Source: Candidatus Lokiarchaeum ossiferum (GTDB lineage Archaea > Asgardarchaeota > Lokiarchaeia > Sigyniarchaeales > Promethearchaeaceae). From it: a stretch of 32,000 nt of DNA. The stretch lies in contig CP104013.1 in the NCBI GenBank assembly GCA_025839675.1, forward strand, positions 2,430,001-2,462,000. Direction: 5' to 3'. The notes under the pieces were generated by a model. It did not search any database. It saw nothing but the letters and a program-made list of their open reading frames with translations, and was not told the origin of the DNA. Position numbers and translations under genes: made by a program. Of this stretch, positions 3,072 to 23,363 are shown one piece after another (within the stretch, counting starts at the first letter, position 1; every line of letters begins with the position of its first letter).

Positions 3072-3638
3072 TCAAAATTGTTCATGATTTGCTTTCATCC
3101 AATCCCGCTTAAATATGGAATATATGTGAGTATCCACATATTCTCCATCAATATACCAATCTTCTTTCCGAGTTGCCTCTAAATGCATTCCTGCTTTAAC
3201 AGCTGATCTCTCAGAGCCGATATTCCAAGCAGAGATCCCTGCAAATATCTTATGAAGATTGACTTCTTCAAAGGCATATTTTAAAATTAATTTAATTGCT
3301 TCGGTAGCATACCCTTGTCCCCAATATTCTTTCTCTCCAATAAGTAAACCATATTCAGCGTTTCGATCATGATATTCAATATCACTCAGACCAATATCCC
3401 CGATTGGCTTTTGATCAACCTTATGCCAGATTTCAAATTTAATTCGGGAATCTGAGGCATTTACATTTTCAATTGCCTTTTGCATTCTTCCAATTGTGGT
3501 GGGTTTGATCATCCGAGATAGACGCCGAATCTCTAGATCATTATACCAATCTACATATATTTCAGCATGTGCAACTTTCAAGGGATGCAATTCTATTCTA
3601 TCCCCATTTATGAACGCAGGATGTGTTTTGCTTGTCAT
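3072..3638 (-). CDS. GNAT family N-acetyltransferase (RimJ/RimL-like)
   Basis: 188 aa. NAEYGLLIGEKEYWGQGYATEAIKLILKYAFEEVNLHKIFAGISAWNIGSERSAVKAGM matches the acetyl-CoA-binding core (Q/R-x-x-G-x-G/A) and overall layout of RimL-type GNATs. Confidence 0.85.
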   Translation of the reverse strand: MTSKTHPAFINGDRIELHPLKVAHAEIYVDWYNDLEIRRLSRMIKPTTIGRMQKAIENVNASDSRIKFEIWHKVDQKPIGDIGLSDIEYHDRNAEYGLLIGEKEYWGQGYATEAIKLILKYAFEEVNLHKIFAGISAWNIGSERSAVKAGMHLEATRKEDWYIDGEYVDTHIYSIFKRDWMKANHEQF

Positions 3639-3667: not shown

Positions 3668-4492
3668 TTATTTTTGGCTTATTTCACGCAATATGGGTAT
3701 TTCAAGCGTGCAGTTAACACATTCTAATATCCCGATTCGAACGAGGTAATTCTGGATCATTAAGCACATTTCTCTATCAAACGATTCATAAAGCACCCGA
3801 TTGGTCTTATTTTGATCAAGATTATCTTTAAACAAAGCATAGAAGCGATCTAAACCTTTTTCAGCTTCTTCATCCAAATAATCTTGTACCATATGAGGTT
3901 TAAACAAGACTACAAAAAGAAGATCATTTTTTGTGGTGATACTCATCTCGATTTCCAACCCTTTCAAAGTAATGCGTTCAATTTTTCCCAAGTTTTCTTC
4001 TCCAAACATGGACAGAGCTGCAATGAATTGTGCAATTAGTTCGAGATTTATAGATTTATCAATTTGAACATAGTACAACAGATCTCCTCCAGATCGGCAT
4101 ATCCCCAAAGCTAAAATATATTCTTTCAACAATTTTTCTACCAGTTCATTTCGACAAAGACGAGGTAAGCTAATTTCCTTTTCAGATTTTGAGGATTTAG
4201 TCTCAATTTCTAAGACTTGATTAAGAAAATGACCTCTGATCCCATCTATACCAAAAAGATGCTTGTGAAAATATTGATGGGTCTTAGTAATATAAAGGAA
4301 TGGCAAGTAAAACTTACAATCATCTTCAATGCAGAATTCTGCAAGAAAATTTGGATCTTCCAATAAATTTTGATAAACAGCGGAATTTTCAATGGATTTT
4401 TCAGTATAGGAAATGTGATTTTGATTAAACCAATCTTTCAGCTGAAAACAGCGATTACAATCGGATTTAGTTATAATGTAGAAATCTTTCAC
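3668..4492 (-). CDS. Two-domain protein: N-terminal glutaredoxin/NrdH-like fold (CNRC) plus C-terminal roadblock/longin-like domain; putative GTPase partner 1
   Basis: The N-terminus FYIITKSDCNRCFQLKDWF...YLPFLYI...GIDGIRGHF fits the Grx pattern: beta1, CxxC, a cis-Pro strand and a GG-type turn. The C-terminal roughly 160 aa is a clear paralog of the ORF at 16304-16804, with shared blocks RSGGD-LY, FIAALSMFGEEN-GKI, LEIEMSI and YL-R-GIL. It is divergently adjacent to a small GTPase gene. Confidence 0.7.
   Translation of the reverse strand: MKDFYIITKSDCNRCFQLKDWFNQNHISYTEKSIENSAVYQNLLEDPNFLAEFCIEDDCKFYLPFLYITKTHQYFHKHLFGIDGIRGHFLNQVLEIETKSSKSEKEISLPRLCRNELVEKLLKEYILALGICRSGGDLLYYVQIDKSINLELIAQFIAALSMFGEENLGKIERITLKGLEIEMSITTKNDLLFVVLFKPHMVQDYLDEEAEKGLDRFYALFKDNLDQNKTNRVLYESFDREMCLMIQNYLVRIGILECVNCTLEIPILREISQK
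3671..4156 (-). other. Roadblock/longin-like domain, copy 1 (paralog of 16304-16804)
   Basis: The beta-beta-alpha-beta-beta pattern (ILALGICRSGGDLLYYVQ / ELIAQFIAALSMFGEE / IERITLKGLEIEMSITTKNDLLFVVLF) resembles Robl/LC7 (MglB-type) domains. Roughly half of aligned residues are identical to copy 2 by eye. Confidence 0.55.
4208..4492 (-). other. Glutaredoxin-like domain of the 3668-4492 protein (CxxC = C-N-R-C encoded at 4448-4459)
   Basis: The reverse complement of 4448-4459 reads TGT AAT CGC TGT. Position after the first beta-strand and the later LPF (cis-Pro-like) motif fit the thioredoxin fold. Confidence 0.55.
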
Positions 4493-4653
4493 CTTTTTTC
4501 CCCCAAAGACTCAAATACGAAGTAAATAGATAATATCAACCTTAAAAACTAAATTATATTGTTTGTGCATAATATATACACAACCTTTAAATATTTGATT
4601 CGCTCTATTAATTCGTAGTATTCATTTTTTGAAAAACAAAAATGAGATGAGTT

Positions 4654-4836
4654 ATGATGTTACAAAACTGCACTTCTTGTACGCACTTCCATAATTGTTC
4701 TATGGATGGAATTGACGCCCATTCCTACTGCGCCACAGATCCAGAGGCTGTCGGAGTATGTGATCTATGGGATGGAATACGAAAAACAATAAAAGCATGT
4801 TCAGGTTGGGAAAACCCATCAATTTCAATTTCTTGA
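4654..4836 (+). CDS. Possible 60-aa cysteine-rich miniprotein (6 Cys, CxxCx5C start)
   Basis: The ORF reads MMLQNCTSCTHFHNCSMDGIDAHSYCATDPEAVGVCDLWDGIRKTIKACSGWENPSISIS. It is visibly more GC-rich than the flanking AT-rich intergenic DNA. An A/T box (tttaaatattt, 4586-4596) lies about 60 nt upstream. It sits 91 nt upstream of, and co-oriented with, the GTPase gene. I recognise no homology. Confidence 0.4.
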   Translation: MMLQNCTSCTHFHNCSMDGIDAHSYCATDPEAVGVCDLWDGIRKTIKACSGWENPSISIS

Positions 4837-4927
4837 ATTCCTACACATTTTTTTATCAAAAATTTTTTGCATTGTTTCTTAAACTCAATCTATAAACCAA
4901 ATTTTTCATGAGATAACTTAGATTACC

Positions 4928-5923
4928 ATGAAAGATCGGATGCTCCAAATTTTTTTAAACTCCGTAATGAAGACGCTAGACTCCCAACTCAATGCGATAC
5001 TGATCATGAATCGTGACGATAAGGTAGTTCTTCGAGTATTCAACAGTAATCTTCCTAAAAAAAAACAAGAAGAAATTGAATCCCTACTCTCATCCAACTT
5101 GACAAAAATTTCTTCTGAATTTGATGGGGATAAGGTTGGTACTTTTGCATTTGCAACGGAAAGTTATCGACTTGTATTTTGTGAAGCCGGATCAGAAGCA
5201 ATTCTTGTCTTTATTTCTCCTAAAATTACGACTCTGGAATATCTATTTTCCTATATTTACCTATGCGCCGAAAAAGTGGTTCGGATTAACTTGGGTAATA
5301 CTACGAGTTTCGTTCTTCCTCATCTCGAAGATTCTGAAGGTGAACATTCAAGTTCAAGTGAAATACAGAAAATTTCTCTTGATTCTGGAACGTTTATTAT
5401 GAAAGTTATTTTGGGGGGAGATTCGAGGGTAGGAAAAACAACTTTGGTTGAAAAATTCGTTAGTGACACATTTAAAGAAGATTTTAAAAGTACCATAGGA
5501 GTTAATCTAATGAAAAAAACCATATCCTATCGGAATTGGAACATCGATGTCACTTTCTCGGTATTTGACATGGGTGGTCAAGATCAATTTGCTCAAGTGA
5601 GACAATCATATTATCAAGGAGCACGTGCAGGATTCATTGTATTTGATGTTACAAGATACGATACATTCCAAAATATCGAAAAATGGTATAAAGAAATACG
5701 AGAAAACGAGCCCAATATCATGTTGTTGCTAGTTGGTAATAAAGTTGACTTGGTAAAGGAACGGAAGGTTTCGAAGACAGAAGGAAAAATTCTATCGAAA
5801 AAATTAGGTATGAAATACCTCGAAACATCCGCTCTAAACAAAGATTTTGTAGAAGAGGCATTTCGAACCTTAGGATTTTTCTATATTTTAAAAAATCGAG
5901 TGGTAAAAATCATCAATAAATAA
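4928..5923 (+). CDS. Roadblock/LC7-like N-terminal domain fused to a Ras/Rab-family small GTPase
   Basis: All five G motifs are present: G1 GGDSRVGKT, G2 T in KSTIGV, G3 DMGGQ, G4 GNKVD, G5 ETSAL. The N-terminal roughly 125 aa (LNAILIMNRDDKVVLRV...YRLVFCEAGSEAILVFISP) has a roadblock-like pattern. A Ser/Glu-rich linker follows. There is no C-terminal Cys prenylation motif (the protein ends VVKIINK). T(7) at 5938-5944 follows the stop. Confidence 0.85.
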   Translation: MKDRMLQIFLNSVMKTLDSQLNAILIMNRDDKVVLRVFNSNLPKKKQEEIESLLSSNLTKISSEFDGDKVGTFAFATESYRLVFCEAGSEAILVFISPKITTLEYLFSYIYLCAEKVVRINLGNTTSFVLPHLEDSEGEHSSSSEIQKISLDSGTFIMKVILGGDSRVGKTTLVEKFVSDTFKEDFKSTIGVNLMKKTISYRNWNIDVTFSVFDMGGQDQFAQVRQSYYQGARAGFIVFDVTRYDTFQNIEKWYKEIRENEPNIMLLLVGNKVDLVKERKVSKTEGKILSKKLGMKYLETSALNKDFVEEAFRTLGFFYILKNRVVKIINK

Positions 5924-5950: not shown

Positions 5951-6805
5951 TTACTTATCTGCTATTATTTTATTACTTTTACTATTGAAATTTCGAGTTA
6001 GGGGTACATACATTTTATCTTTCCAAATAAGAACTATAGCAATTATAACGTAAAATGAAAGCCTAACAAACTCGAAATTTAGGCCGAAGTTAAATACTTC
6101 ACCACTCACATTGATCATCCAATGAAATAGAATAGCAGATAAGATACTTTGATCCGTTTTTTTATTCAGCCAAGTCATTATAATGGTGGGAAAAATTATA
6201 TACCCATTAAAAATCCAAAATAAGGGAGATCCAAATATTACTTCTGTATTTTGATAAGAATCGGGGATGAAATATAAAGGGAAATGCCAAATTGCCCAAA
6301 ATGTTCCCAATATTAGACTGGATAGAAGGGAATTATATTTTATCTGGATTATCGGCAATGCACATCCTCGCCAACCGGGTTCTTCCATGCTCGCAGCAAG
6401 AAAATTAAAAAGGAGGATAAATAAAACTTGGACAGGCAGAATAATGATTGAACCGAAATTAGAAAAACCTATGGGATTGGTGGAAAATAATAGTTCTATA
6501 ATGCCTACACAAATAGAAATCAAAAAATTGAAGAAGATACTGAAAAATAACCATTGCCATTTCTTTCCCTTGCATTGATAGCACCTTTTCCAGAAAGAGA
6601 GTCTCGTTTCTTTTGATTCTAATTTGAACAAACAAAATATTGCCCCAAATAATGGCCCTAAACCACCAATGCTATGAAAAATGATACCAAAGGGAGTAGA
6701 ATAGCTTACTTGAAAGATTATTAAGATACCCCAGAACAACCATGAAAACCCAAACGTAAAAGCAAAAAAAATGAGATTTGGATGGGATTTTTGGATGAAA
6801 GCCAT
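5951..6805 (-). CDS. CPBP-family (CAAX/Abi) intramembrane glutamic metalloprotease
   Basis: Polytopic membrane protein with the three family motifs in order: EExxxR (MEEPGWRG), FxxxH (FWAIWHF) and HxxxN (LFHWMINV). Confidence 0.8.
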   Translation of the reverse strand: MAFIQKSHPNLIFFAFTFGFSWLFWGILIIFQVSYSTPFGIIFHSIGGLGPLFGAIFCLFKLESKETRLSFWKRCYQCKGKKWQWLFFSIFFNFLISICVGIIELLFSTNPIGFSNFGSIIILPVQVLFILLFNFLAASMEEPGWRGCALPIIQIKYNSLLSSLILGTFWAIWHFPLYFIPDSYQNTEVIFGSPLFWIFNGYIIFPTIIMTWLNKKTDQSILSAILFHWMINVSGEVFNFGLNFEFVRLSFYVIIAIVLIWKDKMYVPLTRNFNSKSNKIIADK

Positions 6806-6924: not shown

Positions 6925-8880
6925 CTAGACCAATTGACCACTCACAGCCATAATCCACGCAGAAAGCAGAGTTGCTGTAAATGCCCCTAAATAAATTTTT
7001 CCCGTTTTCCGATAAAAAGCGGTGGTCACAAAGAATATGACTGCGAACTGGGGTAATGTTTGCATGAGGAAAATTCCGAACAATCCAAAGAAAAAGAGAA
7101 GAATTCCCGCGCTTAGACCTGGACCGGTGCCAAACACAAACATTGGAACATATTGAATTAAAAAGACCAAGAATAATCCCGCTTCCATGGCAAAAAGATA
7201 TTTTAACCACCAAACAATCTGGGTTTTGATCTCCGAATCATATTTCTGGAGCTTTAATTGTCCATACATGAATTTTCCACCATTAATCTTGAAGAATAAA
7301 TATACCGGTAATAAATAAACCAAGAAGATTAGAAATCGTGTAGGAGTGAAGGTCTTTAAAATAGGCCACATATACCGCATTTCCACATTCAAGTATTTTT
7401 GAATTATCAAAACAATCGAATACAGATAACCAAAGAAAATGAGCACCATCATAAGGGTTTTAACTAAATATTGCTCTTTTTCTTGAATGGCTTCCACTTT
7501 GAAAATGCCAATATCTTCTTCAGTAAGCCCTTTTTCTTCCTTCGCCTTCAGGAACCATTTTTTAAACAAAAGACTGCAAATCAAGGCATTAATTAACAAC
7601 CAAAAGAGTGAACCATTTCCAGTAAGCAATCTGAAGAAAGGCAATATAACAGTGGTTGCACTTAGTGCAATCATCCCAATGGCAGGTAGGAAAATGAAAC
7701 TGAATCCACCAATCAGAGTATTAATCGTGGCGGATTTCCACCATTCTTTTTTAGTAGTTGGAATTATCTCAGTTGGAGTAGTTTTTAGTCCCACAAATCG
7801 TTCTTTAGTCATTAAAATTGAGGATAAAGGTAAAAGTGAGAGTACAAGAAGTATTACTGCAAACAACATCAAACCTTCTTTAATAAAATAAGTTTGGCGT
7901 CCCGCTTCCAATAAGGCAGCATCTCCATCAGTTTCACCTTGAAGGGCTTGTGTCATCCAAGCAACAGATTCCTGGATACTTTTTTGATTCCAGGTTACTC
8001 CTGGATGGGTGCATTTACATAATGCATATCGTTGTGCTGTCCCATTGGCAAAAACACCATAGGTTTCATCTACACATTCTCCCCGCGGGGTTTCACCTAT
8101 CAGATCTAAATTACTTTCAATCATCGATTTTCCCCGAGCGAGAAAATCAGCGCGGGATTCCATAGGGTTAATAAATAATTCTTCATAAAGTGGCCAGATA
8201 TCAAGATAATTATTCATTCCTAAGACTTCGGTAAGGTCATCAGGCCCACCAGCTTGAATAATCACAGCGCGATGATCTGGATTCAACAATGCCAGTTTTC
8301 GAGCAGTACTTCCCCCCATTGAATGTCCAACAATCCCCATCTGAGTCCCATCAACAAATTCAGCCGATTTTAAATATTGATACATTGCATTGGCACCGAT
8401 AGTATCATCCTCACGTGTGTCAGAAGTTCCAAGAAAATCACCCAGAACATCCGAGCCAATGTCAGAATCCCCATGATTTTGCTGATCCACTGCAATGACA
8501 ACAAATCCCCGTTTCGCTAATTCCATTGCAAGGGGACCTTCCGTGTCTTTATCATTATTCATCCCATGACATAATATTATACCCGGTGCTGGATTATTAT
8601 AGGTTGCAGTCGTAGGACGGTATAATTTCCCTGTGATGGCATTTCCGTATTCATCTGCAACCTGAATATATTCAATATGAGTATTGCCAAAATTGGATTG
8701 GAGGAGCGAGGAAAAGATAGAACTCACAAAAATCACAGTGATCATCACCATTAAAGTGATTTCATCTTTACTCGGTTTCCATTGCTTGATTTTTACAAGC
8801 CAATATTTAAATAAATTGCCCTTATTGCGAGCTAGTTTCCTTTTCTTCTGTTTTTCAATCTGAGGTTCATCATCAACCAT
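6925..8880 (-). CDS. Membrane-anchored alpha/beta-hydrolase fused to a C-terminal polytopic (about 8 TM) membrane domain
   Basis: There is an N-terminal TM (LMVMITVIFVSSIFSSLL). The hydrolase core has an oxyanion-type ILCHGMNND and the nucleophile elbow GHSMGG. About 300 aa of repeated hydrophobic helices follow. The overlapping ORF at 6851-7213 is treated as a shadow. Confidence 0.75.
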   Translation of the reverse strand: MVDDEPQIEKQKKRKLARNKGNLFKYWLVKIKQWKPSKDEITLMVMITVIFVSSIFSSLLQSNFGNTHIEYIQVADEYGNAITGKLYRPTTATYNNPAPGIILCHGMNNDKDTEGPLAMELAKRGFVVIAVDQQNHGDSDIGSDVLGDFLGTSDTREDDTIGANAMYQYLKSAEFVDGTQMGIVGHSMGGSTARKLALLNPDHRAVIIQAGGPDDLTEVLGMNNYLDIWPLYEELFINPMESRADFLARGKSMIESNLDLIGETPRGECVDETYGVFANGTAQRYALCKCTHPGVTWNQKSIQESVAWMTQALQGETDGDAALLEAGRQTYFIKEGLMLFAVILLVLSLLPLSSILMTKERFVGLKTTPTEIIPTTKKEWWKSATINTLIGGFSFIFLPAIGMIALSATTVILPFFRLLTGNGSLFWLLINALICSLLFKKWFLKAKEEKGLTEEDIGIFKVEAIQEKEQYLVKTLMMVLIFFGYLYSIVLIIQKYLNVEMRYMWPILKTFTPTRFLIFLVYLLPVYLFFKINGGKFMYGQLKLQKYDSEIKTQIVWWLKYLFAMEAGLFLVFLIQYVPMFVFGTGPGLSAGILLFFFGLFGIFLMQTLPQFAVIFFVTTAFYRKTGKIYLGAFTATLLSAWIMAVSGQLV

Positions 8881-10503: not shown

Positions 10504-10947
10504 TTATTTCTTTGTTTGAATTCGGAGAAGAATTGAATTCCAAAATGCATTCGTGAATTCAGGATCACTCAATTCTACTTTCCCAATTTTAACACGTGCT
10601 ATTTTAGGGAGAATTCCTTTTTGTGACAATTGAAGCTGCCTAATTGGTATTTCTTGACTATCCAATTTCATAGAGAGAGCCTCAAAGGGACATAATGCCA
10701 TACATACCCCACAAAAGACACATTTTGATTGATCTGGCATGATGGGCATCCGCGCAACTAAAGGCACTTTCATTCCTTTGGCAATCACGGGCATCTCCAA
10801 GGCATTTTTAGGACAAGCTTTCACACATTGTTTACAGGTTTTGCATTTATCCAGATGGAGAATTAAATCGGTTTTTCGGGTGAGATATTCCGAAGAAAAG
10901 GTCCGTGTCTTTATTTTTTCAGTAGTAGTAAGGATCGGCCATTTCAT
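10504..10947 (-). CDS. 2x[4Fe-4S] ferredoxin-domain protein, last gene of the hdr/mvhD operon
   Basis: Two CxxCxxCxxxCP motifs are present: CKTCKQCVKACP and CVFCGVCMALCP. Its start ATG overlaps the mvhD stop in an ATGA 4-nt overlap at 10944-10947, which suggests translational coupling. Confidence 0.8.
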   Translation of the reverse strand: MKWPILTTTEKIKTRTFSSEYLTRKTDLILHLDKCKTCKQCVKACPKNALEMPVIAKGMKVPLVARMPIMPDQSKCVFCGVCMALCPFEALSMKLDSQEIPIRQLQLSQKGILPKIARVKIGKVELSDPEFTNAFWNSILLRIQTKK

Positions 10948-11396
10948 GCTTGAATTTCCTCCATGTGATTTAATCGGGCGACTTCTTTTAAGGGATTCGG
11001 CCCGAGTGCTTTTAATTCATGGACATATTCTTTGATCCGTTCAGTAAATTCAGCTCCTTCACTAGCACTAATATGCCAGAGTTGTACTCGTTTCGGATTA
11101 ATACCATATTGTTCAATGAATTTTTGGATCAAGGCGAATCGCCTAACGGTTTTAAAATTTCCTTCAACGTAATGACAATCGCCTAAATGACATGCGCCAA
11201 TAATAACACCATCGGCTCCTTGTTTCAAAGCTTTAAGGGCGTAATCAGGATCCATTCTACCGGAACACATTAGTCGAATGATACGGACGTTTGCGGGACG
11301 TTGCATACGACTTCGTCCAGCTTGATCGCTTCCTGTATATGTGCACCAATTACAGAAGAATCCCACAATGTATGGTTCAAAGTTATCGTTTTCCAT
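10944..11396 (-). CDS. mvhD: MvhD/FlpD-like iron-sulfur subunit (methyl-viologen-reducing hydrogenase delta subunit family)
   Basis: FFCNWCTYTGSDQAG...RLMCSGR...GCHLGDCHY is the family signature. The ORF track starts at a TTG (11405). However, AGGAG at 11406-11410 abuts that codon and sits 9 nt from the ATG at 11396, so I prefer 11396. Confidence 0.8.
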   Translation of the reverse strand: MENDNFEPYIVGFFCNWCTYTGSDQAGRSRMQRPANVRIIRLMCSGRMDPDYALKALKQGADGVIIGACHLGDCHYVEGNFKTVRRFALIQKFIEQYGINPKRVQLWHISASEGAEFTERIKEYVHELKALGPNPLKEVARLNHMEEIQA

Positions 11397-11408
11397 GATG
11401 ACCAACTC

Positions 11409-13394
11409 CTAATTCGCCCCTCCTTCTCCGTGCACTTCCCACGGTTTAAGGGATTCCAATTCACTAAGGACTTGAGTTTTAGTAAAATGATTTTGGTCAA
11501 TGGCACTACTAGGACAGGTGATCATACAGACACCGCACCCTTTACAGCGGAGGGTATCTATCACCGATACATTTTTCTCTTCGTCAAATGAAATTGCATC
11601 AAAAGAACACACCGATAAACATGAACGACACCCGGAACATATTTCAGACCGCACTTCAGCATAGTAGGGTTCAATTTCCACCTCTCCCGCAGCCATGAAA
11701 TTGTCTGCACTGCTCGCAGCAGCTTTTGCTTGAGCGACAGCATCCGGAATATCACGAGGAGCTTGACAAGTACCACCTATGAAAACACCTTGGGAAAGCG
11801 AATCAACGGGGAATAATTTAGGATGGGCTTCCATAAACATCCCATCATCGGTTAATTGGACTCCAAACTTACGGCCCACATCACTGGCATCTTTCCGGGC
11901 TTCAATGGCTGTGGATAAAATAAGCATATCGACTTCGATTTCAAATTTTTCTCCCAAGAGAGTTTCACTACCCTCCAAGATCAAACTTCCATCTACTTTT
12001 TCAAACACGGATCCGATTCTTCCTCGAACAAAGTTAATGCCGTATTCACGAGCAGCAATTTCATAAAACTCTTCATATCCTTTCCCAAAAGCTCGGATAT
12101 CCATATAAAAAATGTAAACTTGGGAATCAGGATATTTTTCTTTATATTGACGGGCTTGTTTCATAGCATACATACAACATACTCGACTGCAATATTTGTG
12201 ACACCCCTCATGAAAATCACGCGAACCAACACATTGTAAGAATCCCACACTTTTTGGGGTCTGGTGATCTGAAGGTTTGATAACTTTCCCGAGAGTAGGC
12301 CCAGTGCTACTAAGGATCCGTTCAAATTCGATGGCAGTCAGAACATTTTTATATTTCTTGTAACCTAACCGCGCAATTCCACTGGGATCAAAAATATCAT
12401 TCCCGGTAGTTAAAATAATGGAACCAACTGTGAGATCGATTAATTCATCTTTTCGACTTAAATCAATAGCCCCAACTTCACAAGCTTGAACACAAAGCCC
12501 GCATTCAATACAGTTTTGGGAATCAATCGTGTATTGTTCTGGGACTGCCTGAGGAAATGGAATATACGCCGCGGCCCTATGACCCAAATTGAGATCAAAT
12601 TCATTAGGAATTGTGAGAGGACATGCTTGAGCACAAGCTCCGCAGCCCGTACAAATATTGCCATCAATTTTCGACGCTTTTCTTCTCACAGTTACTTTAA
12701 AATTGCCCACATTTAGATCCACGTCTTCAACTTCAGAATACGTTAGTAAATTGATATTTGGATGGCGACCAACTTCGACCATTTTTGGAGTAATAATACA
12801 CGCAGAACAATCCATGGTTGGAAATGTTTTATCCAGTTGGGCCATATGTCCTCCAATAGTGGGACTCCGCTCAACGAGATGTACTTTGTATTTATTGGTT
12901 AAATCTAAAGCTGCAAACATGCCCGAAATGCCTCCTCCCACAACCAAAGCTTCTTGAACCACAGGAAATTTTTGGCGTTCAAGGGGTTTGTTATGGGAGA
13001 CTTTTGCAATCGCCATTTTTAAATGATCCTTGGCGATGTCTAAAGCACCTGGATGATCATGCATATTTACCCAAGAAGCATGTTCACGAATATTCGCTTG
13101 TTCAAAGAAAAACTCATTGAATCCGTTTTTTTTCATCACGGTTCGATAAGTATCTTCATGCATTAAAGGACTACAAGCAGCCACAACCACCCTATTTACT
13201 TTTCCAGAGTTTAAATCATCGGCAATCATTTCTTGGCCGGCTGTACTGCACATAAATTTGTATTCTTTCACGAGAGATACATTTGCAAGTTGCGAAGCAT
13301 ATTCACATAGCGCATCAATATCCACGACATCGGAAATATTTTTTCCACAATGACACACATAAACTCCCACTTTGACATCATCTGAGTTGGACAA
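11409..13394 (-). CDS. hdrA: Heterodisulfide reductase subunit A (FAD plus multiple Fe-S clusters)
   Basis: 661 aa. It has an N-terminal Cys cluster (VCHCGKNIS), a dinucleotide fold (VVGGGISGMFAALDL), and four ferredoxin-type motifs (CTGCGACAQACP, CIECGLCVQACE, CSGCRSCLSVCS, CKGCGVCMITCP). It starts at TTG, preceded by GGAGGT 8 nt upstream inside the end of hdrB. Confidence 0.9.
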   Translation of the reverse strand: MSNSDDVKVGVYVCHCGKNISDVVDIDALCEYASQLANVSLVKEYKFMCSTAGQEMIADDLNSGKVNRVVVAACSPLMHEDTYRTVMKKNGFNEFFFEQANIREHASWVNMHDHPGALDIAKDHLKMAIAKVSHNKPLERQKFPVVQEALVVGGGISGMFAALDLTNKYKVHLVERSPTIGGHMAQLDKTFPTMDCSACIITPKMVEVGRHPNINLLTYSEVEDVDLNVGNFKVTVRRKASKIDGNICTGCGACAQACPLTIPNEFDLNLGHRAAAYIPFPQAVPEQYTIDSQNCIECGLCVQACEVGAIDLSRKDELIDLTVGSIILTTGNDIFDPSGIARLGYKKYKNVLTAIEFERILSSTGPTLGKVIKPSDHQTPKSVGFLQCVGSRDFHEGCHKYCSRVCCMYAMKQARQYKEKYPDSQVYIFYMDIRAFGKGYEEFYEIAAREYGINFVRGRIGSVFEKVDGSLILEGSETLLGEKFEIEVDMLILSTAIEARKDASDVGRKFGVQLTDDGMFMEAHPKLFPVDSLSQGVFIGGTCQAPRDIPDAVAQAKAAASSADNFMAAGEVEIEPYYAEVRSEICSGCRSCLSVCSFDAISFDEEKNVSVIDTLRCKGCGVCMITCPSSAIDQNHFTKTQVLSELESLKPWEVHGEGGAN

Positions 13395-13396
13395 AT

Positions 13397-14377
13397 TTAA
13401 TTACCTCCTTCAGTCAAGGGCATATTCTTGACTTTTTCTAATATTGGGTCTTGTGATGTGAAGGGTGAAATACCTTTCATGTCCGCAGGTTTTATCATCC
13501 CTAAACGTTCTGGTTCAATTCCCATGGCTAAACCAAGAAGTTGAGTAATATAGATTACAGGAATTTGGAATGGTACTTCTCCTTCATCCATTAAATTCGC
13601 TACTTCCAATTGTCCTAAATCATACTGCAATTGGCAAAATGGACAACATACCACAATGCAATCTGCCCCTGCCTTTCGAATTTCCCGTAATTTTTCCAAA
13701 GTTAAGTGGGAACTCACGGATTTATTGGCTGTCCGCACAGCTCCACCTGCCCCACAACACATCATCTTCTTACGATAAATGATGGAAGTAGCTCCAGTTG
13801 CTTCAACAATTTCATCAAAGAATGTGGGATCATCAGGATCTTGCCCAAAAACTTGAATTGCGGCGGGTTTTAAAATGTGACAGCCATAATGGACCGCAAC
13901 ATTCAGATTAAGCTTACGTTTTACCAAGGATTTGATTTTTTCAACACCGATATCATAATATAGGACATCCATGATGTGGCGAACTTTTGAAGTTCCGGTA
14001 TAAGTGCGACCCACAGATGATAGCACTTCATTAACGCGTCCTTTAAGTTCTTCATTATGCTTAAGTTGATGATCTACCTCATTTAAAGTTCCATTGCATC
14101 CATTACAAAGGGTGAGGAGATCATTATGATTTTGTTCAGCAATGTTAATATTCCGAGCCCCCACGGTGAGCCACATAGCTTTATCCACAGACCGAAAAAC
14201 GCCTGGAGCAGGGCAACAACTCGCACCTTCCATTTCATCTACTTTAATATTCAACTCATCAAACAAGGTGCGTGATGCGCGTTCAATCATAGGATACCTA
14301 TTAGGAATCACACAGCCCAAAAAGAGGGAATAATTCAATTCCTTTGAAGATTTATCTGATATTTTTTCACTTTCCAT
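13397..14377 (-). CDS. hdrB: Heterodisulfide reductase subunit B (two CCG domains)
   Basis: Two cysteine-rich CCG-type motifs are present: CCPAPG with CNGCNG, and CCGAGG with CCPFC. AAGGTGA lies 7 nt upstream of the ATG, directly after the hdrC stop. Confidence 0.9.
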   Translation of the reverse strand: MESEKISDKSSKELNYSLFLGCVIPNRYPMIERASRTLFDELNIKVDEMEGASCCPAPGVFRSVDKAMWLTVGARNINIAEQNHNDLLTLCNGCNGTLNEVDHQLKHNEELKGRVNEVLSSVGRTYTGTSKVRHIMDVLYYDIGVEKIKSLVKRKLNLNVAVHYGCHILKPAAIQVFGQDPDDPTFFDEIVEATGATSIIYRKKMMCCGAGGAVRTANKSVSSHLTLEKLREIRKAGADCIVVCCPFCQLQYDLGQLEVANLMDEGEVPFQIPVIYITQLLGLAMGIEPERLGMIKPADMKGISPFTSQDPILEKVKNMPLTEGGN

Positions 14378-14389
14378 TTTTAGGTCACC

Positions 14390-14920
14390 TTAAAGTTGAT
14401 AGGGAATCCTGCCGTTAAACTTGATTTTGTTGATTAGAGTATAGAGCTCATCCATTGCTTCTGGATAACTATGGACTGTTGGAGGTAGGGGGGGAAGATC
14501 CATTTTGATACGTAATTTGGCCCAAGTAGACAGTTCACCACCCAATGGTACAGCGTGACCATGCTGCACCAAATTTTTAATCACACCTTTCAATGGATCG
14601 GGAATATGACCTTCACGAACAGCCATATTGCGCAATTTTAGAATGATTTCGGTCACTGGAATCGTTCGTGGACAGCGTTCATAGCAATTAAAGCAGGTTG
14701 AACAAAGCCAAATATCATTACTTGACAGAACTGATTCTAAGCCAACGAGCGCTTGCCGCATAATTTTTCGTGTTTTCATAGCGGTCCAGTTACCTGAAGG
14801 GCAACCTGCAGAACACTCCCCACACTGGATGCATGCCCGAATTTTACTATGGGATTCTTCAATGGATAATTCTGTGAGAATATCAGGATTAAATTGTATT
14901 AAATTTTTATTTCGGCTCAT
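14390..14920 (-). CDS. hdrC: Heterodisulfide reductase subunit C (2x[4Fe-4S])
   Basis: CIQCGECSAGCP and CSTCFNCYERCP are present. The track ORF extends to a GTG at 14944. The ATG at 14920 (MSRNKNL...) follows a purine-rich GAAGGGAAGGAA and is preferred. Confidence 0.85.
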   Translation of the reverse strand: MSRNKNLIQFNPDILTELSIEESHSKIRACIQCGECSAGCPSGNWTAMKTRKIMRQALVGLESVLSSNDIWLCSTCFNCYERCPRTIPVTEIILKLRNMAVREGHIPDPLKGVIKNLVQHGHAVPLGGELSTWAKLRIKMDLPPLPPTVHSYPEAMDELYTLINKIKFNGRIPYQL

Positions 14921-14980
14921 TTCCTTCCCTTCATTATTAAACACCTTCGACGTAGGAAAGTTAGGGAAAACTTCAAATTC

Positions 14981-15306: not shown

Positions 15307-15327
15307 TAATTTTTGAGATGCGAAATT

Positions 15328-16281
15328 ATGGTCACAATTGCAGATGGACGGTTTAGTCTACCGGATAATCTTCTATATACGAAAAATCAACATGTATATT
15401 TGAATAATGATAAAAAAACACTCGGATTAGATGAGATTGGTTATGCCTTCTTGCACAATCCAAATGAATTGAAAATTTTAGTTGAGGATGAAGTGAAAAT
15501 AGGGATTCCTTTCGCAGCAATTACCACAGATTCAGGAATGACAACATTGAATTCTCCATGCTCAGGAAAAATTAAGCAATTAAATCCTAACGCACTTGCC
15601 TCAATGAAAGATCATACCTATGAAACAGGATTTATCATTGAATTGGAAGAGATCACCGAAGTCCAACCAAATTTGGTAACGGGGTCTGAATTGCAAGAAT
15701 GGGGAAATAATGAAGTCAAAACTTTAGTCCGAAACAATTATTCCTTCAAGATCATTGAAATTGGCGATTCGGCAGTAGGAAAAACCGCAATAAAAGTGCG
15801 TTTTACTGATAACTATTTTAAAAAGGATCTAAAAACAACCTTAGGAGTGGATTTTGGTTCCAAAGAAATCAAGGGAGAGTATATTAGCAGCGATATTTTG
15901 TTCTCGGGCACTTATCGTTTCACGGCCAAAATGAATGTTTGGGATGCAGCCGGACAGGCCATGTATGACAAAATTCGAGGTATGTACTATCGAGATGCAA
16001 AGGGTGCACTTATGTGTTATGATGTACACAATCATTTATCCTTTGAACATTTAGAGAAGTGGCGAGAAGAGCTAGAAGAGAGTTTGGGAAAAGTACCTGT
16101 CCTTCTCGTTGGAAATAAGATTGATCTGGAACGAAAGGTCACCCGTCAAGAAGGTTTAGCTTATGCGATGAAGCATAATTACCTTTTTGTTGAGTGTTCT
16201 GCCAAAACAGGTGAAGGTGTTGATGACATGTTTAAACAGCTCGCCGTAGAGATATTCAAGCGGGAAGAAAAATTAGAGTAA
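15328..16281 (+). CDS. GcvH-like (glycine-cleavage H fold, no lipoyl lysine) N-terminal domain fused to a Rab-like small GTPase
   Basis: GTPase motifs: G1 GDSAVGKT, G2 TTLGVDF, G3 WDAAGQ, G4 GNKID, G5 CSAKTG. The N-terminal roughly 125 aa aligns by eye to GcvH: LLYTKNQHVY versus YSKEHEW, SPCSGKIKQLNPNAL versus APVSGEIVAVNDAL, and ETGFIIELE versus GGWIFKIK. The track start (TTG at 15313) is probably an extension, and the ATG at 15328 is preferred. There is no C-terminal Cys. Confidence 0.85.
   Translation: MVTIADGRFSLPDNLLYTKNQHVYLNNDKKTLGLDEIGYAFLHNPNELKILVEDEVKIGIPFAAITTDSGMTTLNSPCSGKIKQLNPNALASMKDHTYETGFIIELEEITEVQPNLVTGSELQEWGNNEVKTLVRNNYSFKIIEIGDSAVGKTAIKVRFTDNYFKKDLKTTLGVDFGSKEIKGEYISSDILFSGTYRFTAKMNVWDAAGQAMYDKIRGMYYRDAKGALMCYDVHNHLSFEHLEKWREELEESLGKVPVLLVGNKIDLERKVTRQEGLAYAMKHNYLFVECSAKTGEGVDDMFKQLAVEIFKREEKLE
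15346..15696 (+). other. GcvH-like hybrid-barrel domain; the position equivalent to the lipoyl lysine is Ser (codon 15532-15534)
   Basis: Counting 8 residues upstream of the conserved P in P-x-S-G gives ITTDSGMTTLNSP against E. coli AESVKAASDIYAP. This places D-S-G where V-K-A lies. Confidence 0.55.
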
Positions 16282-16303
16282 TCGGAGAAATAGGTGAAAA
16301 ATT

Positions 16304-16804
16304 GTGGTGAACGAGCTAATTTTTGAGCGATTTAAATCGAATAATTTAACCGACAGTCAGTGCCAGCTTGTTCAAAAAATTTTAAAGCACTATATTTTAG
16401 GAATTTTCATTTCTCGTTCTGGGGGGGATATTCTATATGATTTTCAGCTTGATGAAAGCATCAAGATTGATCTTATCTCCCACTTTATCGCAGCTCTTTC
16501 TATGTTCGGGGAAGAAAATGTAGGAAAAATCAAACGAATTTTCATTGAAGGACTAGATATTGAGATGAGTATTGTTCAGAAACACGATCTGGTAAGTGTT
16601 ACTTTTTTCCGTCCCAATATGGTCAAGGATTACCTAGAAGCGGAATCAAGTAAAGGATTAGATCTGTTTTACAATATGTTCGAAGAATCTATCAAAGCAG
16701 GCAAAAATAATAAAGCCATTTATGAAGGATTTGACGATCCTATGTGCCATTTGATTCAAGAATATTTGCAAAGATTAGGTATTTTAAAGGATAAAGAAAA
16801 ATAA
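16304..16804 (+). CDS. Roadblock/longin-like protein, putative GTPase partner 2 (paralog of the C-terminal domain of 3668-4492)
   Basis: 166 aa. It has a GTG start with AGGTGA (16292-16297) 6 nt upstream, only 22 nt after the GTPase stop, so it is likely co-transcribed. Shared blocks with the 3668-4492 protein are ISRSGGDILY, FIAALSMFGEENVGKI, LDIEMSI, KDYLE, KGLD-FY and QEYLQRLGIL. Confidence 0.7.
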   Translation: MVNELIFERFKSNNLTDSQCQLVQKILKHYILGIFISRSGGDILYDFQLDESIKIDLISHFIAALSMFGEENVGKIKRIFIEGLDIEMSIVQKHDLVSVTFFRPNMVKDYLEAESSKGLDLFYNMFEESIKAGKNNKAIYEGFDDPMCHLIQEYLQRLGILKDKEK

Positions 16805-19690: not shown

Positions 19691-20581
19691 ATGATAACTA
19701 TGGATCACCTTGAACGACTTGAAAATAAAAGTATACACATAATGCGAGAAGCCTATAATCAATTTAAAAATCTGGGAATGCTCTGGTCAATTGGTAAAGA
19801 TTCGACAGTTCTTCTCTGGTTAGCCCGAAAGGCCTTCTTTGGACATGTCCCTTTCCCGCTTGTACACATTGATACAGGTTATAAAATTCCTGAAATGATC
19901 GAGCATCGGGATCGATTAGCAAAAGAGTGGAATCTCGATATGGTCTATGGACAAAACCGAACAGCATTAAATGAAAAGCAAACCTTTCCAGATGGGACAA
20001 CAACCCATTTAGATTGTTGTAAACTCCTAAAAACCCAAGCATTAGAAAATACTTTGAATGGAAAATGGCCCAGATACCGCATGAACCATAAGAAATCTCA
20101 ATATGAAATCGATTCAAACAATGAAGCCTTCGAGGGAATCATTGTAGGAGTGAGAGCCGATGAAGAAGGCAGCCGCTCCAAAGAACGGTATTTCTCCCCA
20201 CGGAATACACACAATGACTGGATCATTGAAGATCAACCTCCAGAATTTTGGAACCAATATAAAACAGACTTCCACCCGGGAACTCATATCAGAGTCCATC
20301 CTCTTTTAGATTGGACCGAGTTAGACATATGGGAATATATAGAACGAGAGAATATACCAATGGTTTCCCTTTATTTTGACAAGGGGGAAGGGAAAAGATA
20401 TCGATCCTTGGGTTGTTGGCCATGTACTAAGCCTGTAGATTCCCACGCAGCCAACGTTCATCAAATTATTGCTGAATTGAAAACAGGTAAGTTTGTAAAT
20501 ATTGCTGAAAGGGACGGTCGGGCCCAAGATAAAGAAGATGGCGGCGGTTTGGAAGTTTTACGCCGCGATGGGTATATGTAA
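19691..20581 (+). CDS. cysD: Sulfate adenylyltransferase subunit 2
   Basis: [16 protein letters not shown] is present, with a PP-loop-type [12 protein letters not shown], and C-terminal [11 protein letters not shown] followed by [10 protein letters not shown]. This is typical of CysD. Confidence 0.9.
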
Positions 20582-20594
20582 CTGAGGAATAGAA

Positions 20595-22445
20595 ATGACA
20601 CAACCATATATTGACACTAATTACACCGAAAATACAAAGGATCTAGAAGAAGAAATAAGTGATCGCATGAATATTGCGATTGTAGGTCATGTAGATCATG
20701 GAAAAAGTACAATCATTGGTAGATTGCTCGCAGATACCAAATCATTACCTCAAGGAAAGCTAGAACAAATAAAGGAGCGATGTAAAAGGAATTCTAAGCC
20801 GTTTGAATATTCATTCTTACTGGATGCTTTAAAGGACGAACAAGCGCAAGGTATCACAATAGATACAGCACGGGTTTTTTTCAATAGTGAAAAAAGAAAA
20901 TACATCATTTTAGACACCCCTGGACATATAGAATTCCTTCGAAATGTCGTAACGGGTGCATCTCGCGCCGAAGCAGCATTGCTAATTATAGATGCCCATG
21001 AAGGAATTCAAGAAAACTCCAAACGTTATTGCTACATGATTTCTCTCTTAGGAATTAAAAAGATTTCCATAGTTGTTAACAAAATGGATCTGATTGATTA
21101 CTCTGAAACAAAGTTCCTTAATATTGTTCACGAATATCAACAATTCTTAGATAAAATTCAAGTCACTCCTTTAAGTTTCATACCAGTAAGTGGAAAATTG
21201 GGTGACAATGTTGCATCTAATTCTGAGAATATTCCATGGTACAAAGGACCTTCCATCCTATCCCAATTAGATATGTTTATAGGGGAAAAAATTCCTGAAG
21301 ATCAAAATTTCCGAATGTCTGTGCAAGATGTGTACAAATTTACAGAAAATAATGATAAACGAAGAATTGTTGCAGGAACTATCGAATCAGGAGCTATTTC
21401 AGTAGGTGAGGAGGTAGTGTTTCTTCCCTCAGGAAAAACGAGTAAAATTCAAAGTATTGAGGGATTCAACACTTCTACAAAAAAAACTATAACAGCCGGT
21501 TATGCTACAGGTTTTACGATTGCCGATCATCTTTATATTAAAAGAGGTCAAATTATGGCTCGATCGGATCAAAATCAACCCCATGTAGCAAATAATATTG
21601 TTGTTGATCTATTTTGGTTAGGAAAATTACCGCTCCAGTATGAAAAAGAATACTTTATAAAGATAGGTGCTCAAAAAGTGCCTTTTACCCTCCAAAAAAT
21701 TCGTAGAGTTATAGATGCAACCAATTTGAATTTTGAAGAAAAGCCAGAAATTCATAGAAATGAAGTTGCAGAGTGTGAATTTTTGTTAAAAGAACCGATC
21801 GCATTTGATTTAACTCATGAATTGTTATTAACCAGTCGTTTCGTTATCGTGGATGATTTCGAAATAGCAGGTGGAGGGATAATCTCCGACATCATTAACA
21901 ATTCAACAGAAAAAACCAAAAAAACGAATGAAAATCTAAGTTTTGCATGGGAACGAAGTAGGATTGGTATGGATGATCGTGCAGAGCGATATAATCAAAA
22001 ATCAAGCTTGATATTAATAACTGGAGGCAAAGAAAGCCGAAAGAAGGAGATAGCCAAAGCACTTGAAAAAGAACTGTTTTCTCAAGGCAAATTTGTTTAT
22101 CATATGGGAATAGGACATTTGCTTTATGGATTAGATGAAAGTGTTAGATTGAATACAATTAATAATACTGACAACCACATCAGCAGACTTGCGGAAATTG
22201 CCAATATTATGTTAGATTCTGGCTGTATTTTAATTGTTACTGCAAGATCATTGAACCAATCAGACCTAGAACTCTTAAGAAAAACACTAATTGTGCCCGA
22301 AAAATTGATTAGTGTGTGGATAGGTAATGTGGTTTTTACTGATATCAAGGTAGATTACCATCTATTTAACTTCCAGCGGATTAAACGGGGAGTAAAAAGG
22401 TTAAAACAAATCTTGCAAGACAAAGGAATTATTTTCAAAATATAA
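20595..22445 (+). CDS. cysN: Sulfate adenylyltransferase subunit 1 (GTPase) fused to a degenerate APS-kinase-like C-terminal domain
   Basis: G1 is [10 protein letters not shown]3 is DTPGH and G4 is NKMD. GAGGA lies 6 nt upstream of the ATG, 13 nt after the cysD stop. The C-terminal roughly 170 aa is homologous to CysC, but the Walker A and DGD motifs are not conserved (see finding). Confidence 0.9.
21942..22445 (+). other. APS-kinase-like domain with a non-canonical P-loop
   Basis: [22 protein letters not shown] aligns with Cys[34 protein letters not shown] aligns with [18 protein letters not shown] aligns with LTAFISP. Overall collinearity with E. coli CysC is clear, while the catalytic motifs are substituted. 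Confidence 0.6.
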
Positions 22446-22448
22446 GTC

Positions 22449-22458
22449 TTTTTTTTTT
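22449..22458 (+). terminator. T(10) tract between cysN and cysH (possible terminator or attenuation point)
   Basis: The T run starts 4 nt after the cysN stop and ends 11 nt before the cysH ATG. Confidence 0.3.
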
Positions 22459-22469
22459 GATAAAATAGG

Positions 22470-23285
22470 ATGCAACCAAATATGTCAACAGAAAAAACTC
22501 AATACGCTCTAAATTTATTAGAATCAGCATTTATTAATACAAAACCACGAGGTGTAGGATGTTCTTTTGGGAAAGATAGTGTTACCGCTGTTCATTTAGC
22601 ACGACGAATCGATCCAAATATTCCTGTATTTTCGATTATGACAATTTTCAAACCTAAAGAGACTTTTGAATATTTAGTGGAAATCAACCGTCTTCTGAAT
22701 TTAGATGTCTTGGTATATATGGTAGCCGAACGGGTTCCACAAATATTAATTGATAATGGAATAAAAGTGGAATTATTATCTCCAGATAATTTTCGAGAAG
22801 CTCAAGGAACTCATGAGAATTTCTTACATACTGAAGATGTTGACCGATGTTGTCATCTCCTCAAAGTGGTTCCGATTCAAAAAGCAGTGGCGAATTATGA
22901 CGTATTGATCGATGGACTTCGAAGTTCAGAAGGAATCACTCGTCAAAATTTGCAAGAAATTGAAATAACTGGAGACCTAACAAAAATTCATCCAATTCTC
23001 CACTTTACAGAAGAAGATATATTTGAATATCTCAAAAAAAATGACATCCCTATTCATCCATGGTATTTGAAAACGTTTCCAGATGGGAAACGTTATCGAT
23101 CTTTAGGTTGTGCCCCTTGTACACGACCAATTTTTGATCATGAATCAGAACGCGATGGGCGGTGGCAAGGAAGTAAAAAAGAAGGCGGTGAATGCGGAAT
23201 ACACACAAATCAAATTAAACCTTCAAAACAGAATATCCCCCTTCAAAAAACTTTTGTGATGGAAAAACAGGATTATAATTGCTAG
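22470..23285 (+). CDS. cysH: Phosphoadenosine/adenosine phosphosulfate reductase family, Fe-S (APS reductase-type) variant
   Basis: It has a PP-loop-like CSFGKDSVTAVHL and the C-terminal catalytic motif ECGIH. It also carries the CC (DRCCHL) plus CxxC (LGCAPCT) cysteines that ligate the [4Fe-4S] cluster in assimilatory APS reductases. These are absent from E. coli-type PAPS reductase. Confidence 0.8.
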   Translation: MQPNMSTEKTQYALNLLESAFINTKPRGVGCSFGKDSVTAVHLARRIDPNIPVFSIMTIFKPKETFEYLVEINRLLNLDVLVYMVAERVPQILIDNGIKVELLSPDNFREAQGTHENFLHTEDVDRCCHLLKVVPIQKAVANYDVLIDGLRSSEGITRQNLQEIEITGDLTKIHPILHFTEEDIFEYLKKNDIPIHPWYLKTFPDGKRYRSLGCAPCTRPIFDHESERDGRWQGSKKEGGECGIHTNQIKPSKQNIPLQKTFVMEKQDYNC

Positions 23286-23363
23286 TTTCTTTATAACCCC
23301 TTTATGTCATCATGATTGATCAATTTTTCCAAATGTTGAATTTAATGAGAAAAGCTAAGTAAA

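Follow-up and report, generated by a model that had tools for sequence, protein, structure and literature searches.

We analysed a 32,000-nucleotide stretch of the genome of the Asgard archaeon Candidatus Lokiarchaeum ossiferum (positions 2,430,001 to 2,462,000 of contig CP104013.1, assembly GCA_025839675.1; hereafter the window, in whose coordinates all positions are given), with the locus at 3668–5923 as our subject. A preliminary description, made from the sequence alone, had read this locus as a divergent pair of genes: a GTPase with a roadblock-like domain at its N terminus (NEF87_002023), and a partner with a roadblock-like domain behind a glutaredoxin fold (NEF87_002021), the two being thought to form a heterodimer that brings a CxxC redox domain next to the G domain. 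We favour a different reading, to which we give a probability of roughly 0.55: the locus holds three genes of the Lokiarchaeial small-GTPase signalling repertoire, not a dedicated two-protein module, and within that repertoire NEF87_002021 would be a redox- or metal-sensitive GTPase adaptor and NEF87_002023 a roadblock-regulated Rab-like switch. The evidence turns on the second domain of NEF87_002021, here called the partner domain, and on its relatives elsewhere. The parts of the locus are:

3668–4492, minus strand: partner gene NEF87_002021, an open reading frame (ORF) of 274 amino acids with a GTG start, its translation 100% identical to NEF87_002021
4493–4653: intergenic region between the divergent NEF87_002021 and the small ORF that follows
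4654–4836, plus strand: small Cys-rich gene NEF87_002022, 60 amino acids, annotated in both L. ossiferum assemblies
4928–5923, plus strand: GTPase gene NEF87_002023, an ORF of 331 amino acids with the RefSeq name 'Rab family GTPase'

Domain architecture of NEF87_002021

NEF87_002021 has 44 homologs, all from Lokiarchaeia/Promethearchaeota. Its AlphaFold2 (AF2) model has a mean predicted local distance difference test score (pLDDT) of 78.8, and we divide the protein as follows:

4208–4492, minus strand: glutaredoxin-like domain, residues 1–95 (AF2 pLDDT 75–93)
4448–4459, minus strand: CxxC motif C12-N-R-C15, at the start of helix 1
4298–4306, minus strand: conserved cis-Pro candidate P64 (LPF), ahead of strand 3
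3737–4147, minus strand: longin/roadblock-fold domain, residues 116–252, a family without a Pfam model
3671–3736, minus strand: C-terminal tail, residues 253–274, with a second CxxC and the motif LEIPILRE
3710–3721, minus strand: second CxxC motif, C258-V-N-C261, in the C-terminal tail

In the model, the glutaredoxin-like domain begins with a strand (residues 4–8) that leads through C12–C15 into a helix (13–24); a second strand (30–33) and further helices precede P64, which is followed by strands at 65–68 and 73–75 and a closing helix at 87–93. The family profile matches the PDB glutaredoxin 7c10 with an expect value (E) of 8.4e-5, and the CxxC motif is aligned with CPHC in that match. A match to the Pfam family Glutaredoxin (PF00462) is precomputed for one ortholog (P0026), and there are weak NCBIfam matches, all under the curated thresholds, to Spx, NrdH and YruB-type glutaredoxins. 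The preliminary description had let its proposal hang on conservation of the CxxC motif in orthologs: C12 and C15 are present in all 17 orthologs that have the N terminus, and P64 in all 18 that are full-length. Taken together, profile and model indicate that the N terminus of NEF87_002021 folds in the manner of thioredoxin, with a cis-Pro loop and the CxxC motif where helix 1 begins. Other Cys residues are conserved too: C54 and C59 in 15 of 18 orthologs, and C113 in 18 of 18.

A feature that the preliminary description had not picked up is the C-terminal tail of this protein, in which the motif EC[VI]xCxLEIPILRE, with C258 and C261, is retained by all 18 glutaredoxin-fused orthologs. Both CxxC motifs are missing from every short stand-alone form of the protein, and so is the tail. 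Because the two motifs strictly co-occur in the long forms and are jointly absent from the short ones, the pattern of conservation suggests that they act together, either in disulfide exchange or as four metal ligands. The tail itself may serve as a peptide for docking or may supply a group of metal ligands. It is conserved more strongly than would be expected of a region that AF2 treats as disordered.

A low-confidence linker (residues 100–115) joins the glutaredoxin-like domain to the partner domain, for which AF2 predicts the order helix-strand-strand-helix-strand-strand-strand, then three helices. A Foldseek comparison of this five-stranded sheet and its flanking helices with the PDB brought up longin and roadblock proteins and hardly anything else (E 5e-4 to 1e-2): zeta-COP, sigma-adaptins, Roadblock2 of Promethearchaeum syntrophicum MK-D1 (another cultured member of the Lokiarchaeia), the VAMP7 longin domain, MglB and MP1/p14, together with TRAPP and Mon1-Ccz1 subunits, SRX and Ego/Gse1. 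Two sequence links are indirect: the partner profile finds region 'L' of P0167, a multidomain GTPase of Gtr1/RagA type (E 2.6e-5), and a distant member of the family from Harpocratesius weakly matches MAPKK1_Int (LAMTOR3; E 0.009). By its structure, the domain appears to deserve the earlier label 'roadblock-like' as far as the fold superfamily is concerned; a longin domain is at least as likely, because of the best structural matches and the extra C-terminal helices. The architecture that had been proposed for this neighbour, a glutaredoxin fold with C-N-R-C and then a roadblock-like domain, is accordingly borne out by the AF2 model, the profile match and Foldseek.

A search of the available literature for glutaredoxin-roadblock or glutaredoxin-longin fusions and for redox control of Asgard GTPases returned nothing relevant. 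The glutaredoxin-longin fusion and the GTPase-linked domain family extend a known kind of system; the roadblock-GTPase fusion is known.

The partner-domain family and a second GTPase system

A profile of the partner domain retrieved 64 cluster representatives from 1.84 billion proteins, most of them 140–180 residues long; its named relatives are all from Lokiarchaeia/Promethearchaeota. One member is encoded elsewhere in the window, directly behind another GTPase gene:

15313–16281, plus strand: NEF87_002033, a GTPase with a GcvH-like domain and a Ras-family G domain (Pfam Ras, E 1.8e-46; annotated start at 15328)
16304–16804, plus strand: NEF87_002034, a stand-alone longin/roadblock-like paralog of 166 residues, 22 base pairs (bp) downstream of NEF87_002033

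NEF87_002034 is 57% identical to residues 116–257 of NEF87_002021 over 142 residues, and the G domain of NEF87_002033 is 33% identical to that of NEF87_002023. The same co-directional order, a GTPase gene and then a short gene (165–177 codons) after a gap of ~10 bp, recurs at five loci (L016–L020) from Promethearchaeum metagenome-assembled genomes (MAGs) and other MAGs; at two of these (L016 and L017) two copies of the short gene stand in tandem. Conserved co-directional adjacency of a GTPase and a putative regulator, of the MglA/MglB type, is therefore found at 15313–16804 and at five other loci. In this second system, the best Pfam match of the GTPase's N-terminal domain is GCV_H in 4 of 4 orthologs, below threshold (E 6e-4 to 1e-2), and a weak biotinyl-domain match accompanies it; the domain resembles the lipoyl-biotinyl carrier fold.

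The partner domain is also found within GTPases. A metagenomic protein of 384 residues (P0121) combines a partner domain (residues 21–171) with a Ras domain (residues 204–373) of the type seen in the second system, P0168 has a partner domain ahead of another GTPase, and in P0167 it lies downstream of a Gtr1/RagA-type G domain, at residues 323–405. P0167 resembles the 'GXLX' class of MK-D1, in which the corresponding domain is called longin (Tran et al. 2024, PMC10933270). A further protein, P0119, has two copies of the partner domain in tandem. We also observed that switch II of P0121 reads DIAGP instead of DxxGQ, so that the catalytic Gln is missing.

Gene order and domain composition link the partner-domain family to GTPases: some members share a conserved operon with a Ras GTPase gene, and others are fused to G domains. 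The GTPases so linked belong to a different clade, and the link does not point to roadblock-roadblock pairing, since they carry a GcvH-like N terminus and no roadblock domain. The family probably acts as a dimer, as the tandem duplicates in L016 and L017 and the tandem protein P0119 hint. We regard the system at 15313–16804 as a candidate for something unusual in Lokiarchaeia: a GTPase matched to a putative regulator.

NEF87_002023 as a roadblock-Rab fusion

The features of the GTPase are:

4928–5293, plus strand: Roadblock/LC7-type domain, residues 1–122, from AF2 fold and family profile
5366–5920, plus strand: Rab-like G domain, residues 147–331
5417–5440, plus strand: G1, GDSRVGKT, residues 164–171
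5486–5503, plus strand: G2, with T189
5567–5581, plus strand: G3, DMGGQ, residues 214–218
5738–5749, plus strand: G4, NKVD, residues 271–274
5825–5836, plus strand: G5, TSAL, residues 300–303

Pfam assigns residues 159–315 to Ras (E 2.3e-45; 154.5 bits, cut-off 21.6), with Arf far behind, Gtr1_RagA far behind Arf in turn (27 bits), and Roc also far below Ras. The AF2 model (mean pLDDT 78.7) finds its best Foldseek matches in Rab1, Rab8, Rab11, Ypt and Sec4, at 33–37% identity and E ~1e-16; the top 50 matches (28–39% identity, E ~1e-16) comprise Rab1/8/11/3/5, Ypt and Sec4, and the solved Thorarchaeota Rab 7ezb is matched as well. By sequence scores and model alike, the G domain is thus Rab-like, nearer to Rab than to Arf, Rag or MglA. 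An NCBIfam match to 'DS8 antiphage' (E 4.9e-4) was set aside: it covers the P-loop region only and lies far under its cut-off.

Residues 1–122 by themselves yield nothing in Pfam. They are ~35% identical to paralogs, among which PF03259 (Robl_LC7) is matched in 11 of 18 (best E 1.5e-8), and the profile of this domain family matches the PDB entry 9jue, 'Roadblock/LC7 domain protein' (E 1.5e-5). AF2 predicts a helix (2–20), strands (23–27 and 33–38), a helix (44–65), three strands (72–76, 80–86 and 92–98) and a helix (103–122), with pLDDT mostly 74–90. The Foldseek list for the whole GTPase is filled by matches to the G domain and is uninformative on this region, so sequence profiles were used instead. 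Based on the PF03259 matches of paralogs, the 9jue profile match and the predicted topology, we identify residues 1–122 as a putative roadblock domain.

The preliminary description of NEF87_002023 stands up well. A complete G1–G5 set with the Gln of DMGGQ was located by script and is invariant or nearly so in 36 homologs; a roadblock-like domain ahead of the G domain in one polypeptide is the common verdict of profile, paralog and AF2 evidence, and the order, roadblock first and G domain second, is indeed opposite to that of Rag/Gtr. The expectation that both roadblock-type domains of the locus fold as roadblock/longin also agrees with AF2 for each protein, backed by Foldseek for NEF87_002021 and by profiles for NEF87_002023. 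Finally, the claim that no prenylation Cys is present at the C terminus is correct: the protein ends LKNRVVKIINK. Asgard Rab-like proteins generally have no C-terminal prenylation Cys (Tran et al. 2024, PMC10933270).

RefSeq lists an alternative product of 318 residues that starts at Met14 and so leaves out the region 4928–4966. The 13 codons ahead of Met14 are conserved in orthologs and belong to the predicted first roadblock helix; the 331-residue start is more likely right, because the shorter one would remove part of this conserved helix.

A roadblock-then-GTPase fusion is already known for Lokiarchaeia and is not new: all 74 small GTPases of MK-D1 have been modelled, of which 26 carry a fused roadblock or longin domain, and 'RB-GTPase architectures' have been discussed (Tran et al. 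2024, PMC10933270). L. ossiferum paralogs from the same genome are already named 'Roadblock/LAMTOR2 domain-containing' (P0074).

Gene order at the locus and across genomes

NEF87_002021 and NEF87_002023 are divergently transcribed, as the preliminary description had it, but they are not immediate neighbours in L. ossiferum: the gap between them is 435 bp and holds NEF87_002022. Divergent neighbours occur in three Lokiarchaeum-lineage genomes only, whose neighbourhoods are otherwise syntenic. These are the window itself, its closest relative (L005; 85% and 91% identity for the two proteins), and L024, a contig from a more remote member of the Lokiarchaeum lineage (78% and 74% identity), in which the gap is 180 bp with nothing in between. 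No Ras-family ORF was found within 5–10 kilobases of the glutaredoxin-fused ortholog in 11 other Lokiarchaeial genomes, and no partner gene near GTPase orthologs (~50% identity) in three other genomes. The proposed dedicated two-gene module is thus weakened by gene order, the adjacency being confined to three syntenic genomes and gone in 11 others. Given the 74 small GTPase genes of MK-D1 and a genome that we take to hold ~4,000 genes, we estimate that a random gene would adjoin a small-GTPase gene by chance in a few percent of cases.

NEF87_002022 lies on the same strand as the GTPase gene, 91 bp upstream of it, and encodes six conserved Cys (C-x2-C-x5-C-x10-C-x9-C-x12-C). Its differences from L005 are distributed 5/6/24 over codon positions 1/2/3, with 22 synonymous and 9 non-synonymous codons; from this pattern the gene is judged to be coding and under purifying selection. 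UniRef labels it 'Methylene-tetrahydrofolate reductase C-terminal domain-containing protein'. We rejected NEF87_002022 as a conserved third component: homologs were found in L. ossiferum and its closest relative only, and it is absent from L024 and from the region upstream of more distant GTPase orthologs.

The intergenic region 4493–4653 contains A/T-rich blocks that are conserved relative to the closest relative, including TTTAAATA at ~4586–4593 (alignment); a promoter role for them is conceivable.

In the Harpocratesius contig L003 (7242–10628), and likewise in L015, a 943-residue coiled-coil protein with apolipoprotein-like repeats and a weak TrmB-like N terminus is encoded downstream of the glutaredoxin-fused ortholog. 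After it, on the opposite strand, comes a gene for a distant, 166-residue member of the partner-domain family that weakly matches LAMTOR3/MAPKK1_Int.

Proposed functions and alternative explanations

We propose that NEF87_002023 would be a Rab-like switch, the roadblock domain of which most likely serves as a platform for dimerisation and regulation; roadblock domains act in this way in MglB, Ragulator and the Rag GTPases. For NEF87_002021, we infer that the longin-like domain, probably as a dimer, would act as a regulator or effector by offering a platform on which a small GTPase binds, and that through the two CxxC motifs this binding would respond to the thiol redox state or to a metal held by the protein. 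An analogy is offered by Spx, in which a CxxC motif gates a protein interaction.

Several results weigh against this proposal. The longin/roadblock assignment of the partner domain comes from a single AF2 model (pLDDT ~79) with modest E-values and target template-modelling scores of 0.35–0.58; sequence and profile searches of this domain against Pfam families and PDB chains gave no match, and hhalign gives it a probability of 3%, that is, no profile similarity, against the roadblock family of the GTPase. The N-terminal domain scores 12.5–14.1 bits with PF00462, below the cut-off of 22.9. Residues 261–274 have pLDDT <50, and the model therefore gives no confident nearness of the tail CxxC to the glutaredoxin CxxC. 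As for genomic context, the link to GTPases is seen for the short paralogs and not for the glutaredoxin-fused form: in MK-D1 and five other Promethearchaeum-type assemblies the ortholog is flanked by genes for an AsnC-type regulator and a DUF711 protein, and two Harpocratesius genomes and two or three further MAGs have it in yet other contexts.

This last pattern speaks for a reading in which the two neighbours are unrelated and NEF87_002021 would work as a thiol oxidoreductase or sensor outside GTPases, its longin-like domain binding some ligand or protein for another process. The Promethearchaeum-type arrangement with AsnC-type regulator and DUF711 genes is conserved without GTPases, GTPase genes of MK-D1 do not as a rule share operons with genes for roadblock or longin proteins (Tran et al. 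2024, PMC10933270), and longin/roadblock-like folds also serve other roles, as in profilin and in SRX, to which the SRP-receptor matches in Foldseek belong. Yet the same domain, at 57% identity, sits in a conserved Ras-GTPase operon and is fused to G domains, and a full change of function inside so small and closely related a family would be less economical; we consider this explanation improbable.

We also think it unlikely that NEF87_002021 and NEF87_002023 form a dedicated roadblock-type heterodimer, with the CxxC domain beside the G domain and redox gating of the Rab-like switch. In favour of it, three genomes of the Lokiarchaeum lineage have the two genes as divergent neighbours, with an empty gap in L024; each protein has a domain of roadblock/longin fold, and such domains typically pair (Tran et al. 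2024, PMC10933270); and the partner-domain family is tied to GTPases elsewhere. The three genomes, however, share their whole neighbourhood and amount to about one observation, set against the absence of adjacency in 11 genomes with the glutaredoxin-fused ortholog and 3 with the GTPase ortholog. The chance of adjacency estimated above also counts against a heterodimer, as do the unrelatedness of the two domains at profile level and the fact that the GTPases conservedly paired with the partner-domain family are without a roadblock domain. That the target of NEF87_002021 in Lokiarchaeum is the neighbouring roadblock-Rab protein, by whatever means, seems to us rather doubtful; the fuller proposal, in which NEF87_002021 is a thiol- or metal-gated regulator of a Rab-like GTPase and reaches NEF87_002023 through a longin-roadblock heterodimer, we hold to be very doubtful; if true, it would feed redox state straight into a Rab-type switch of pre-eukaryotic age.

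A different question is what the Cys residues do. The N- and C-terminal CxxC motifs, perhaps with C54 and C59, might bind a structural zinc ion or an iron-sulfur (Fe-S) cluster, with the glutaredoxin-like domain as a scaffold; we would treat this only as a tentative alternative. It would account for the co-occurrence of both motifs in all long forms and no short forms and for the additional conserved Cys residues (C54/C59 and C113), and it would suit an anaerobic organism with genes for many Fe-S proteins nearby and with NEF87_002022, a small neighbour that is Cys-rich as well. Two points speak against it: the first CxxC occupies the canonical redox-active position, with a conserved cis-Pro, and AF2 does not confidently place the C-terminal tail near it.

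Comparison with known systems

Like the RB-GTPases of MK-D1 (PMC10933270), NEF87_002023 is a Lokiarchaeial protein with an N-terminal roadblock domain, then a small G domain, and no prenylation Cys. It differs from them in that its roadblock domain has diverged beyond detection by Pfam, and in that its G domain is Rab/Ras-like, whereas the design has been discussed mainly under a Rag/Arf-like class (PMC10933270). Paralogs at 44–46% identity, including NEF87_002141 of the same genome, carry both PF03259 and Ras.

The likeness to Rag/Gtr GTPases and Ragulator (LAMTOR) lies in the union of a G domain and a roadblock domain in one polypeptide, in the use of roadblock domains as dimerisation platforms, and in the presence of LAMTOR2/3 (MP1/p14) and Ego/Gse1 among the Foldseek matches of the partner domain. 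On the other hand, the domain order of NEF87_002023 is reversed and its score is 154 bits with Ras and 27 bits with Gtr1_RagA. No second Rag-like gene, as a heterodimeric GTPase partner, lies adjacent to NEF87_002023 in the window.

With MglA-MglB the parallel is to the window region 15313–16804 and its orthologs, in which a GTPase gene and the gene of a roadblock-fold regulator share one operon; MglB is also among the Foldseek matches of the partner domain. In contrast, the genes at 3668–5923 are divergent, and their linkage is not conserved but confined to one genus-level lineage. NEF87_002023 is, moreover, Rab-like with a catalytic Gln of its own, and NEF87_002021 has additional helices at its C terminus as well as a glutaredoxin domain.

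Structurally, the partner domain comes closest to longin proteins that bind GTPases (zeta-COP, sigma-adaptin, SRX, Mon1-Ccz1 and TRAPP); several of these are direct binders or regulators of Arf, Rab or SR-beta GTPases. The partner domain differs from them in showing no sequence similarity and in having a roadblock-like N-terminal helix, and we know of no glutaredoxin-like fusion in any of these longin proteins. The N-terminal domain shares with glutaredoxin, NrdH and Spx-type proteins a short thioredoxin fold, a CxxC motif that opens helix 1 and conservation at the cis-Pro position. It differs from these in scoring under the curated thresholds, in an insert that contains C54 and C59, and in its fusion to a longin/roadblock-like domain and a tail with a second CxxC.

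Other genes of the window

The locus is flanked by the following genes:

3072–3638, minus strand: GNAT acetyltransferase
5951–6805, minus strand: Rce1-like membrane protease (CAAX protease/CPBP family), directly downstream of NEF87_002023
6925–8880, minus strand: membrane alpha/beta-hydrolase

In neither L005 nor L024 is the Rce1-like gene found at this position; the alpha/beta-hydrolase gene there follows the GTPase gene directly, and the Rce1-like gene looks like a strain-specific insertion. A tie through CAAX processing between this protease and NEF87_002023 was considered and rejected: with no C-terminal Cys the GTPase is without a CAAX motif, which makes such a link unlikely, and the protease gene is missing at this position in both relatives.

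Two further clusters were noted. The first, at 10504–14944 on the minus strand, resembles heterodisulfide reductase with MvhD:

14390–14944, minus strand: HdrC-like
13397–14377, minus strand: HdrB-like, with CCG domains
11409–13394, minus strand: HdrA-like
10944–11405, minus strand: MvhD/FlpD
10504–10947, minus strand: 2x[4Fe-4S] ferredoxin

The second, at 19691–24242 on the plus strand, is a sulfate-assimilation-like cluster with a gene of the PAPS-reductase family (CysD-like), a second gene of that family, a TauE/SafE sulfite exporter gene and the following gene:

20595–22445, plus strand: CysN-type GTPase fused to an APS-kinase domain

Implications

GTPases of the Rab-, Rag- and Arf-like kinds number in the dozens in Asgard archaea, which also encode many proteins with roadblock and longin domains; few regulators have been matched to a GTPase, because the genes are usually unlinked (Tran et al. 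2024, PMC10933270). The small, unannotated longin/roadblock-fold family described here is an exception: stand-alone members lie in a conserved operon with one clade of Ras-type GTPases, and members are sometimes fused to it. The pair NEF87_002021/NEF87_002023 is the weaker part of the account, the roadblock-GTPase fusion being known and the adjacency lineage-specific. The family nevertheless supplies testable GTPase-regulator pairs in two cultured Lokiarchaeia, L. ossiferum and MK-D1. One branch of it has gained a second CxxC in addition to a CxxC domain of the glutaredoxin type, which makes that branch a candidate for passing redox or metal status on to GTPase signalling.

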